A DNA stretch of 64,000 nt, taken from an uncultured Planctomycetota bacterium (GTDB lineage: Bacteria; Planctomycetota; Planctomycetia; Isosphaerales; Isosphaeraceae). This document shows, piece after piece, positions 60,280 through 63,841 of the stretch (positions are counted from its first letter, which is position 1; each line of letters begins with the position of its first letter). Made by a program: the position numbers and the translations under genes. Under the pieces are notes generated by a model. That model did no database searches. It had not been told where the DNA came from and was given only the letters and a program-made list of their open reading frames with translations. The DNA lies in assembly GCA_963737655.1 (NCBI GenBank), contig CAVTTN010000002.1, positions 3,392,001 through 3,456,000 of the forward strand. The letters are read 5' to 3'.

Positions 60280-61374
60280 TCAAGCCTCCTGCAAGGCCGG
60301 GTAGTCAATATACCCGCGCTGGTCGCCCCCGTAGAAGGTGGCAGGGTCCGCCGGGTTCAGGGGGGCGCCGACCCGGAAGCGTTCGGGGAGGTCGGGGTTG
60401 GCGATGAACAGCTTGCCGAAGGCGACGAGATCGGCCAGGCCCGATTCCAGGATGGACTCGGCCGATTCCCGGGTCAACCCGCCGTTGGCGATCAGGGTTC
60501 CGCGATATTTCGCGCGGAGCTCGGCCGTCGGGACGACGTCCGCCCCGTGGCGGACGTCCGCCTCCTGGGGCTCGATCAGGTGAAGATACGCCAGGCCGTG
60601 CGCGGACAGCTTCTCGACGAGGTAGCCGAACGTGGCCGAGGGGTCGGAATCGCTCATGTCGTTGAACGTCCCGCTCGGCGACAGCCGGATACCCACGCGA
60701 TCGGCGCCCCAGACCTCGGCGGCGGCGGACGTGACTTCGAGATGGAGCCGGGCCCGGTTCTCGACGGGGCCTCCGTAGGCGTCGGTCCGCTGGTTCGTGC
60801 CGTCCCGGAGGAACTGATCGAGCAGGTAGCCGTTGGCCCCGTGGACCTCCACGCCGTCGAACCCCGCCTCCTTCGCCCGGATCGCGCCCTGGCGGAACTC
60901 CTCGACGATCCCGGGGATCTCGTGAGTTTCCAGGGCCCGAGGGACCTCGAACGGCTTCGGGCCCTCCAGGGTCGCGGCCATCCCCGCGTTCGGACGGATC
61001 GCCGAGGGCGCGACGGGCGAGGCGCCTCCGGGGAGGAGCGACGGGTGCGAGATCCGGCCGACGTGCCAGAGTTGGAGGAAGATCCGGCCGCCCCGGTCGT
61101 GGACGGCCTCCGTGACCGCTCGCCAGCCGGCGACCTGTTCGGGAGAATAAATCCCCGGGGTCATCGGGTAACCCTGGCCCATCGGCGAGACCTGGGTGGC
61201 CTCCGACACGATCAGGCCGGCCGAGGCCCTCTGGGCGTAATAGGTGACGTTCATGGGACCGGGGACGTTCCCCGAGCCCGCACGGTTGCGGGTCAACGGC
61301 GCCATGACGATCCGGTTGCGGAGCTCGTACGGACCCAGCCGGACGGGCGAGAGCAGCTTCAGCGTCGAGCTCAT
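60280..61374 (-). CDS. Old Yellow Enzyme alkene reductase (NemA-like)
   Basis: MAPLTRNRA, LQLWHVGR, EVHGANGYLLDQFL, FIANPDL, FYGG..GYIDYP. Confidence 0.95.
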   Translation of the reverse strand: MSSTLKLLSPVRLGPYELRNRIVMAPLTRNRAGSGNVPGPMNVTYYAQRASAGLIVSEATQVSPMGQGYPMTPGIYSPEQVAGWRAVTEAVHDRGGRIFLQLWHVGRISHPSLLPGGASPVAPSAIRPNAGMAATLEGPKPFEVPRALETHEIPGIVEEFRQGAIRAKEAGFDGVEVHGANGYLLDQFLRDGTNQRTDAYGGPVENRARLHLEVTSAAAEVWGADRVGIRLSPSGTFNDMSDSDPSATFGYLVEKLSAHGLAYLHLIEPQEADVRHGADVVPTAELRAKYRGTLIANGGLTRESAESILESGLADLVAFGKLFIANPDLPERFRVGAPLNPADPATFYGGDQRGYIDYPALQEA

Positions 61375-61420
61375 CGGACGAACCCTCCTGGGCCTCGCGG
61401 ACTTGGGTGACTCGGTCAGG

Positions 61421-61465
61421 GCGGGGACGTGGCCTCCGACGACTCCGGCAGGGCCACGTCCCCGC
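61421..61465. other. 14-bp intercistronic stem-loop
   Basis: GCGGGGACGTGGCC ... GGCCACGTCCCCGC. Confidence 0.6.
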
Positions 61466-61478
61466 ATCCCCTGGGCCG

Positions 61479-62279
61479 TTAGTTGCCGGATTTCACGTGG
61501 CCGCCATCAACCCGGAAATTCGCCCCGGTGATGAACGACGACAGCGGGCTGGCGAGATAGGCGACGACGTGGGCGATATCCTCCGGCTCGCCGAGCCGGC
61601 CGACGGGCAGGGGCATGTACTCCAGGGCCATCTTGGAGACCTCCGCCCAGTCGGTCCCCTTGCCCATCGAGGCGGCGATCTTGGTGAACGCCTCGCGGAA
61701 CCCGGCCGTGACGATCGGCCCGGGGCTCACGGTGTTGGCCGTCACGCCCGTCCCGGTGAGCTCCTTGGCCAGCCCCACGGTCAGGTTGATGTTCGCCGCC
61801 TTCGTGGCCGAGTAGGCCGGCGCCTGGGGGGTCGGCTCGGGCCCGACGGCGCTGGCGATCTGGATCACCCGGCCCCAGCCCGTCTCCTTCATCGCCGGGA
61901 CGAGCCTCTGGATCATCCGGACCATCGAGGTGACGTTCTGGTTGTAGATGTCCGTCCAGACGTCGGCCGAACCCTCGAACCAGCCCACGAACGGGAAGGC
62001 GCCGGCGTTGTTCACCAGGATGTCGATCCCGCCGAACGCCCCGAGGGCCGCCTTGGCGACGGCCTCGGCCTGGTCGTCGGCGGCGAGGTCGCCGATCGCC
62101 ACCTTCGCCTTGCCTCCGGCCTGGACGATCGCCTCGGCCACCCTCCGGGCTTCCGCCTCCCTCCGGCCGTGGACCACGACCGAGGCCCCCTCGGCCGCCA
62201 GCTCCTTGGCGATCGCCTCGCCGATCCCGCTGCTGCTGCCGGTGACCAGCGCCCTCTTGCCCTTCAGTTGCAAGTCCAT
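61479..62279 (-). CDS. SDR family oxidoreductase
   Basis: TGSSSGIG, NNAG, YSATK, VSPG, VDGG. Confidence 0.95.
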   Translation of the reverse strand: MDLQLKGKRALVTGSSSGIGEAIAKELAAEGASVVVHGRREAEARRVAEAIVQAGGKAKVAIGDLAADDQAEAVAKAALGAFGGIDILVNNAGAFPFVGWFEGSADVWTDIYNQNVTSMVRMIQRLVPAMKETGWGRVIQIASAVGPEPTPQAPAYSATKAANINLTVGLAKELTGTGVTANTVSPGPIVTAGFREAFTKIAASMGKGTDWAEVSKMALEYMPLPVGRLGEPEDIAHVVAYLASPLSSFITGANFRVDGGHVKSGN

Positions 62280-62302
62280 CGCCCGTCTCCCGTAAGGTTG
62301 AG

Positions 62303-62318
62303 AATAGACCGGTCTATT
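62303..62318. promoter_or_regulatory. NemR-like TetR operator palindrome
   Basis: AATAGACCGGTCTATT upstream of the SDR gene. Confidence 0.65.
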
Positions 62319-62367
62319 TGAAGGATGGAAGCGCGAACGGTCCGACCCGATCGCGGGGTTTCGGACC

Positions 62368-62966
62368 TCACCGAGTGGCGGGTTCGGCGGCCAGGACGAC
62401 GCCGAACATGGTGTCCAGGAACGTTTTCAGGGCGCCGAGGAGCGGGCCGTCTTGGCCCGGAGGACGGCCCCTTGCCAGGCGTTCAGCCAGAAGTCGGCCA
62501 GGGCACGGACGTCCAGGCTTGCCGGGAGGTCCCCGGCCTTCTGGGCCTCGCCCAGGCACTCGGCATAGCGATCGACCCAGGTCTCGAAGACCTCTTCCAG
62601 GCGGACTCGGAGCGCCTCGCTCTGGGCGGCCATCTCCTGGCTGAGCGTGCCGACGAGGCATCCGTGGCGGCAGCCCTGCCCGTCGAGCCGGGCGATGATC
62701 GATTCGAAGTACGCGCGGAGCCGATCGAGAGGCCGGAGCGATGCGTCGTGGAAGCACCGATCCATCTGCTCGTCGTAGAACCGGGCGAACCGGTCGATGA
62801 CCTGGAGGCCGAAGTCCTCCTTGCTCTTGAAATAGTTATAAAACGAGCCTTTCGGAACGTCGGCCGCCTGGAGGATCGCCTCGATGCCCGAGTTGGTGTA
62901 GCCCGTCTCGGAGAAGATCCGCGTGCCGACCTCCAAGAGGAGGTTCTTCGTCTCACCCCTGGCCAT
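62368..62966 (-). CDS. TetR family regulator, NemR-like (frameshift at 62430-62432)
   Basis: VPKGSFYNYFKSKEDFG, GCLVGTLSQE, WQGAVLRAK; one extra base restores SAPLKTFLD. Confidence 0.9.
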
Positions 62967-63037
62967 GAATGGACCCCGGACTTCGTCGTCTCGTTGCGTC
63001 GCCCGACCAATCCGCCGCAATCCCGTTGCCCTCAAGA

Positions 63038-63053
63038 TTAGACCGGTCGTCTC
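63038..63053. promoter_or_regulatory. Second NemR-like operator (autoregulation)
   Basis: TTAGACCGGTCGTCTC upstream of the TetR gene. Confidence 0.55.
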
Positions 63054-63247
63054 GGGGGATCAAGGGGGAACATTTGTCGAGATCCGGAGGCCCGGGGCGT
63101 CCGAACGGCGGGGCGCCGAGGTCCGGATGCCCCCTTGCCGGATCCGGCCCCAACCGCCAGAGTAGGGGCGAAATCCGAGCCGGCGCGGGCCCTCGGCGTG
63201 AGAGCGGACCCGGAAACCGGCGTTTTCGTCCCGGTCGAGGAGGTCGG

Positions 63248-63841
63248 ATGAAGATCGCGGTCGGATCGATGTCTCTGGCGGCGGTCGTGCTGTCGCTGGT
63301 CGTGGCGACAACGCCGGCGCAGGAACCGAAAACGGAGAAGGGCAAGCCCGCGCCCGAGGAGCAGACCGGGCTGAAGGTCGGCGAGAAGGCCCCGGCCTTC
63401 ACGCTGAAGGACCCGGACGGCAAGGAACGCCGGCTCGACGAGTTCCTCAAGAAGGGCAAGGTCGCCCTGGTCTTCTATCGATCCGCCGACTGGTGACCCT
63501 TCTGCAAGACGCAGCTGGTCCAGCTGCAACGCGACCTCAAGGCGATCGAAGATGCGGGATTGCAGGTCGTCGGCATCAGCTACGATGACCCCAAGATCCT
63601 CAAGACCTTCACCGATCGCAACAAGATCACGTTCCCCCTGCTCTCCGACCCGGAGAGCCGGGTGATCGAGGCGTACAACATCCGCAACCCGGCCGCCCGG
63701 GGCAAGGCGGAGGGCGTTCCCTATCCCGGGACGTTCCTCATCGACGCGAAGGGGACGATCCGCGCGAAGCTCTTCCTGGAAGGGTATCGCGACCGCCACT
63801 CCTCCGAGGCCCTGATCCGGGCCGCCAGGGCGATGGATTGA
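63248..63841 (+). CDS. Exported AhpC/TSA-redoxin family protein with in-frame UGA (probable selenocysteine, U-x-x-C)
   Basis: GAGGAGG RBS; signal peptide; VGEKAPAFTLKD..VALVFYRSADW-TGA-PFCKTQL..VVGISYD..FPLLSD..PGTFLID all in one frame. Confidence 0.85.
63511..63527 (+). promoter_or_regulatory. Candidate bacterial SECIS hairpin
   Basis: GCAGCUG-GUC-CAGCUGC, 14 nt after the UGA, GGUC at the apex. Confidence 0.6.

Follow-up and report, generated by a model that had tools for sequence, protein, structure and literature searches.

A selenoprotein with a PF00578 domain and a UxxC motif was listed in Solibacter usitatus under the name 'Prx-like thiol:disulfide oxidoreductase' (Zhang et al. 2006, PMC1794560, supplementary file 4). 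In the GOS selenoproteome, Dataset S1 contains the motif RSADW 13 times, and entries under '#Prx-like 1' read RSADWUPYC (Zhang & Gladyshev 2008, PMC2398784). 'Prx-like 1' also appears in Table 1 of a 2026 review, where the family is described as predicted with high confidence and not experimentally verified (PMC13188914). The use of selenocysteine (Sec) in planctomycetes is known (PMC4807772), and background on periplasmic reductive pathways has been published (PMC3322552).

The redoxin gene analysed here (63248..63841, + strand) lies in a window of 64,000 nucleotides, the whole stretch of DNA that was analysed. Its product belongs to this selenoprotein subfamily, predicted since 2006, and represents no new mechanism or family; the first-pass annotation had overrated its novelty, since the subfamily was already listed as a predicted selenoprotein in supplementary file 4 of PMC1794560. 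Compared by eye, LVFYRSADWUPYCKTQLVELE of the Solibacter protein corresponds to LVFYRSADWUPFCKTQLVQLQ of the redoxin, and both have a P-Y-P-G-T loop, a signal-like segment at the N-terminus and an identically placed Sec; both are predicted selenoproteins (PMC1794560). The Solibacter protein differs by a C-terminal DsbD_N-like domain, whereas the redoxin is a stand-alone 197-aa domain (PMC1794560). Fused loci found in this analysis were 33–47% identical to the 197-aa redoxin. Short RSVDWUPFC proteins without a fused domain are present in the same GOS dataset as well, but these are marine reads, and neither a clade of the class sampled here (43/401 genomes) nor a covarying SECIS is described in the passages of PMC2398784 that were covered. 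The kinship with the Solibacter entry and the GOS reads is based on the shared RSADW-U-P(F/Y)C motif, compared by eye only. A literature search, with most subscription journals outside it, returned no paper on the unfused clade or its SECIS, and a motif search of the main texts of papers gave only unrelated papers among the matches listed. An earlier report of the redoxin from this lineage may nevertheless exist, as a table in PMC4807772 (12 of 14 supplements covered) lists a 'peroxiredoxin' with SECIS for strain P1, with no sequence given. What this analysis adds is the unfused clade in this lineage, often accompanied by a second selenoprotein as neighbour.

Two open reading frames (62969-63496 and 63560-63841, + strand) share a single frame. 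Counted from the ATG at 63248, the sole internal stop is the TGA at 63494-63496 (codon 83), in agreement with the first-pass annotation, which had described one frame split by TGA alone. A Shine-Dalgarno-like GAGGAGG was read directly at 63237..63243 (+), 4 nt 5' of the ATG, and the frame ends at a second, true TGA stop (63839-63841, +). Read-through gives a 197-aa UxxC redoxin (Prx-like thiol:disulfide oxidoreductase); assignment as a single gene was based on the frame, the PF00578 match and orthologues of equal length and frame. The thioredoxin-fold domain (residues 44-173; 63377..63766, +) was assigned by profile matches to PF00578 (AhpC/TSA; 124.6 bits, cut-off 26) and PF08534 (Redoxin; 75.4 bits) and by an AlphaFold model. 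Within the context FYRSADW-U-PFC, the TGA (63494..63496, +) occupies the first Cys position of a CxxC motif. This position, already proposed for a thioredoxin-fold CxxC, agrees with the translation and with homologues that have TGC or TGT at the site, and conservation in family and class marks it as the putative Sec83 of U-P-F-C. Cys86 (63503..63505, +), the presumed resolving cysteine of UxxC, is invariant in a 59-row alignment. Taken as a whole, the locus is best explained as one gene with Sec83 that encodes an exported thioredoxin-fold redoxin (probability roughly 85%).

Conservation of the TGA was determined in several overlapping samples, and kinship inflates all cross-genome counts given here. 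Of 61 related genomes (this one included), 13 had a match; each of the 13 contains one TGA, i.e. 12/12 other matching relatives, and the gene was absent from the 3/3 same-genus genomes within this set. With the 59-row alignment as query, 41/121 same-family genomes matched and 42/43 matches contain the TGA; the sole match without it begins 3' of the site. In the class sample, 43/401 genomes matched, with TGA in 43/45 matches and no stop in 2/45; the one of these two that was inspected (L260) is a Cys form. The phylum sample, in which only 9 candidates were scored per genome, gave matches in 2/401 genomes. A TGA-specific pattern retrieved at least 120 metagenome stretches, 80 of which were examined. 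A Cys-containing search pattern gave TGC or TGT at the site in 80/80 loci from Opitutaceae, Acidobacteriaceae, alphaproteobacteria and others; because the pattern contained Cys, this result shows the existence and not the frequency of Cys forms. The comparison of TGA with TGC homologues, suggested earlier as a check, came out in favour of TGA in family and class, with Cys forms elsewhere.

The hairpin GCAGCUG-GUC-CAGCUGC (63511-63527, +) encodes QLVQLQ and follows the TGA after a 14-nt spacer. It has 7 bp and a 3-nt loop, GUC (63518-63520), which starts 21 nt after the UGA; folded alone, it has -9.8 kcal/mol. These values lie within every bSECIS constraint given in section 5 of PMC13188914 (loop of 3–9 nt, G in the first two loop positions, stem of 4–16 bp, 16–37 nt from the UGA, at most -7.5 kcal/mol). 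In the single sequence, the folding energy was within chance (z of -0.28 to -0.55 versus shuffled sequence), and the status of the hairpin was therefore judged by cross-species pair counts. All 7 stem pairs are intact in 13/13 family loci. Pairing at all 5 core positions is preserved in 69/71 distinct other TGA forms (from 81 loci, with 1 dropped as truncated and duplicates merged) versus 2/68 distinct Cys forms, and the loop begins with GU in 84/84 TGA rows versus 32/68 Cys rows. Two stem pairs link silent codon positions and change together in TGA forms. In 83 distinct pooled TGA forms, pair +18/+28 is G-C (64), A-U (18) or A-C (1), while A-C occurs in 21/60 Cys forms with the same Gln..Leu; pair +19/+27 is C-G (73) or U-A (10) in TGA forms and never unpaired. 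For 32 sequences, picked from TGA sequences on the plus strand of their loci, the covariation score was 0.314 versus 0.132±0.022 after shuffling; 0/500 shuffles reached this score, and 96% of cells pair. Two of the five measures of this analysis were not beyond the shuffles (74/500 and 335/500; same 32 sequences). Pair counts and covariation figures are inflated by kinship; the contrast of TGA and Cys forms is independent of protein constraint. Judged by these comparisons, the hairpin is a bacterial SECIS. The SECIS-like hairpin of the first-pass annotation is confirmed in its position 14 nt 3' of the TGA, and its pairs are kept in TGA forms and decayed in Cys forms.

A search of the genome for the Sec machinery, also suggested at first reading, gave selA (506 bits), selB (302 bits) and selD (341 bits), all above cut-offs. 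The selD gene has its own in-frame TGA and a 6-bp GUC-loop hairpin. Searches of this assembly with Rfam, ARAGORN, blastn and nhmmer, the latter two with tRNAs of relatives, gave no tRNA-Sec. One Rfam match over the tRNA-Sec cut-off was rejected as tRNA-Leu(UAA), 52 'SeC' calls of relaxed ARAGORN were rejected for their resemblance to coding DNA, and the single call of the intron mode was implausible. Searches by blastn and nhmmer with the tRNA-Sec of 30 relatives returned Ser, Leu and other ordinary tRNAs only. selC was likewise not found at places syntenic to same-genus selC, where nothing is left; since the position of selC varies among relatives, these empty sites say little. The assembly is 87.7% complete and consists mostly of one 7.6-Mb contig, the ends of which do not overlap. 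It has three rRNA operons. With default ARAGORN on the whole assembly, tRNAs for Sec, Lys(UUU), Val(GAC) and Ser(CGA) were missing, and a single clear CAU tRNA was detected; AAA is used 2575 times in long ORFs, although tRNA-Lys(UUU) was not found. tRNA-Sec is present in 3/3 same-genus genomes. Of 56 other carrier genomes (54 with TGA, 2 without stop), 52/56 have tRNA-Sec and 52/56 selA; in high-quality carrier genomes these numbers are 27/28 and 28/28, respectively. Relatives in general have tRNA-Sec in 37/61 and selA in 40/61 cases, and selA was found in 1/5 Cys-form genomes (5 drawn from the 80 Cys loci). The missing tRNA-Sec is best explained by the incomplete assembly. An alternative UGA read-through route, considered at first reading for the case that selABCD were absent, is not needed because selA, selB and selD are present and the tRNA-Sec gap fits the incomplete assembly. 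Given the TGA, the hairpin and these genes, there is little doubt that Sec would be inserted at residue 83 via the standard bacterial route.

Other explanations of the TGA were weighed against Sec insertion. A substitution error for TGC or TGT had been allowed for in the first-pass annotation, and indel-type errors do occur nearby in the assembly (TetR gene, about 62430). The same TGA is present in 12/12 other matching relatives and 42/43 family matches and comes with a co-varying hairpin; the chance of an error is negligible, and we regard this reading as already refuted by sequence conservation. Alternatively, tRNA-Sec may truly have been lost, leaving the remaining Sec genes as recent relics and a gene that is dead or yields an 82-residue fragment only. 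This would fit the failure to find selC in an assembly of mostly one 7.6-Mb contig and the fact that nothing is left where same-genus genomes have it, but selA, selB and selD are intact and five UGA-plus-hairpin genes are undamaged. Furthermore, the 87.7% complete assembly with its non-overlapping ends also lacks tRNA-Lys(UUU) and has one clear CAU tRNA, and selC changes its place among relatives; a true loss is improbable. Still less probable is decoding of UGA as Cys or Trp, be it through a non-canonical tRNA or through an altered genetic code. None of 120 listed database homologues shows U at the site; Trp is given in 16/120, all of them JGI gene calls (including P0010, P0012 and P0021), and Ser in one (P0029). 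These Trp entries and the missing canonical tRNA-Sec would speak for recoding. However, the Trp calls are most likely misreadings of the gene caller, Trp would destroy the CxxC motif, the redoxin gene and many homologues end in TGA, and no tRNA with a UCA anticodon, of whatever type, could credibly be identified in this assembly. Moreover, across genomes the TGA goes together with a SelB-type hairpin and with selA/selC. That the genome is more complete than apparent and decodes UGA by a tRNA form missed by Rfam, ARAGORN and relatives' sequences, without a canonical tRNA-Sec, is very improbable, too.

In thioredoxin-type disulfide oxidoreductases, the first residue of the motif attacks and the second Cys resolves. 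The AlphaFold model of the redoxin (pLDDT 89.7) is closest to the folds of BCP, AhpE and ResA. Among solved structures, BCP/PrxQ and AhpE peroxiredoxins come closest in sequence and fold (TM-score of 0.88 by target length), but their PxxxT/SxxC(U) motif (Sec form TxxU) is not shared by the redoxin. In the comparison with BCP 2cx3, Ser79 stands at the motif Pro, Sec83 at Thr/Ser and Pro160 at the catalytic Arg. Pro160 (GVPY-P-GTF; 63725..63727, +) is at the thioredoxin-type cis-Pro position, with cis geometry presumed from the fold family. The best NCBIfam peroxiredoxin score was 73 (cut-off 140), the model for SelL-related redox protein (NF040769) scored 65 (cut-off 120 bits), and no NCBIfam model was above cut-off for the redoxin or 5 homologues. 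With ResA, TlpA and CcmG, which are fed by DsbD or CcdA, the redoxin shares the predicted export, the thioredoxin fold, a CxxC-type motif and Pro at the cis-Pro site, and the model matched ResA structurally (E of about 5e-12). It differs from them by Sec in place of the first Cys, by a predicted cleavable signal rather than a membrane anchor, by recurring gene neighbours among which no cytochrome c maturation genes were seen, and by low scores with the ResA/TlpA/DsbE models NF002854 (66 vs 170), TIGR00385 (34 vs 123) and NF047696 (34 vs 230). The active site thus appears to have the thioredoxin-type disulfide oxidoreductase layout, with Sec attacking and Cys86 resolving.

A predicted Sec-type signal peptide comprises residues 1-24 (63248..63319, +) with Lys2, a hydrophobic core and TPA|Q as the putative cleavage site. 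Hydropathy of the N-terminus reaches 2.75 per 11 residues, no twin-arginine or lipobox Cys is present, and 81/89 full-length homologues have a hydrophobic N-terminus. These data agree with the signal peptide noted earlier, by which the redoxin is very probably exported. DsbD_N is a domain that passes electrons to periplasmic thioredoxin-fold proteins. Many homologues extend about 280 residues further, and DsbD_N (PF11412) was found in 5/5 such fusions tested. This genome has a DsbD-type gene (C2:5019461-5021143, +) with two tandem DsbD_N domains and a membrane domain. From the fusions and this gene, a periplasmic reductase fed by DsbD is proposed; by analogy to the fusions, which come from other lineages, re-reduction of the selenenyl-sulfide by the DsbD N-terminal domain has somewhat better than even odds. 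In the DsbD-type gene itself, the frame seems broken before the C-terminal thioredoxin domain, perhaps by an assembly indel. An 810-aa frame that starts with a CxxC thioredoxin-like domain ends in another DsbD_N-like domain (C2:1843995-1844336, -).

In the proposed mechanism, SelB.GTP.Sec-tRNA would bind the hairpin, whose GUC loop starts 21 nt after the UGA, and selenocysteine would be inserted at residue 83. The protein would be exported by its signal peptide and fold as a thioredoxin-fold redoxin. The Sec83 selenolate would then attack a disulfide or other oxidised thiol of an envelope protein, Cys86 would resolve the mixed bond, and the resulting selenenyl-sulfide may be re-reduced by the DsbD N-terminal domain. 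The redoxin would act like ResA/TlpA/CcmG and not like a peroxiredoxin. An exported Sec-dependent thiol oxidoreductase had also been put forward in the first-pass annotation; it gains support from the conserved TGA, the covarying SECIS, selA/selB/selD and the predicted signal peptide.

Selenolates are good nucleophiles for peroxides. The redoxin could thus be a periplasmic peroxide scavenger whose selenolate reduces hydroperoxides directly, in a GPx-like manner, with Cys86 resolving. The top sequence and fold matches (BCP/PrxQ/AhpE) point in this direction, as does the reduction of peroxides in the Caulobacter periplasm, which is fed by a DsbD-class protein (PMC3322552). On the other hand, the redoxin lacks Pro, Thr and Arg of peroxiredoxins, and Cys versions with the same active site are common. 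The peroxiredoxin-like PrxL of the same Caulobacter work is without detectable peroxidase activity; it represents a different subfamily (cd02969) in which the two cysteines are far apart in sequence (PMC3322552), whereas U and C of the redoxin UxxC are three residues apart. Because the peroxiredoxin catalytic residues are missing, a periplasmic disulfide reductase is the probable function, and a peroxide scavenger, the main rival, is unlikely.

The neighbours of the redoxin gene in this genome give no functional hint: TetR, SDR and flavin oxidoreductase genes lie upstream on the other strand and a transporter gene downstream. The row divergent from the redoxin gene (60280-63035, -) presumably consists of a TetR regulator, a short-chain dehydrogenase and an old-yellow-enzyme-like gene; a frameshift seems to be present in the TetR gene near 62430. 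Redox genes recur as neighbours in relatives; the chief one encodes a second exported UxxC redoxin, which has TPR repeats and a hairpin of the same type and is located within about 1.5 kb of the redoxin gene in at least 14 related genomes. Its 20 matches correspond, after merging of three duplicate pairs, to 14 genomes (loci L092, L093, L096, L097, L258, L259, L263, L264, L271, L277-L279, L284 and L292) and 3 metagenome contigs (L159, L189 and L191). In L097, the protein is about 475 aa long and has TPR repeats, and L159 has a U-G-C variant; no NCBIfam model was above cut-off for it, and it was not found in this genome. Based on this gene arrangement, it is tentatively proposed that the two UxxC redoxins might form an all-selenium periplasmic relay, a DsbD-fed selenoenzyme pair.

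For phylogeny, a FastTree tree of 187 domains was midpoint-rooted, with no clade test; 'solo' labels include genes cut by contig ends. Cys forms appear at several positions of this tree, either within Sec clades or next to them, which suggests repeated Sec-to-Cys changes in the redoxin family. The Cys form L260 (genome G595) keeps a perfect SECIS hairpin, and its genome still has selA and tRNA-Sec; it is probably a recent Sec-to-Cys change.

The gene is cut in two by annotation tools, and its description as one frame corrects a routine mis-annotation; 15 of the 120 listed homologues are C-terminal fragments of 108–113 aa. As a single-domain, presumably exported selenoprotein with a clean covarying SECIS, the redoxin is a convenient test case for the export and reduction of Sec enzymes in an oxidising periplasm.

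Three further CxxU genes with a G-U or G-G loop hairpin were found in this genome: a SelW-like gene, a gene for an AhpD-like protein and a fusion of deiodinase-like and AhpD-like parts. Scanning the whole genome for TGA gave much noise (233 coding-like TGAs, 81 of them with a hairpin) and missed SelD and SelW, which were given by other searches; the selenoproteome list of this genome may be incomplete. Two candidates (C2:2810790 and C2:2047361) were rejected, as their TGAs are stops between adjacent ABC-permease genes. The SelW-like CxxU gene (C2:3221679, -) lies directly upstream of the Sec-type selD (C2:3221374, -), and both have G-U triloop hairpins like that of the redoxin. The AhpD-like CxxU gene (C2:629163, -; TIGR01926 above cut-off) likely encodes a selenoprotein. 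The same applies to the gene at C2:4888034 (+), a fusion of about 800 aa with a deiodinase-related domain (NF038285) and an AhpD-like CxxU domain.
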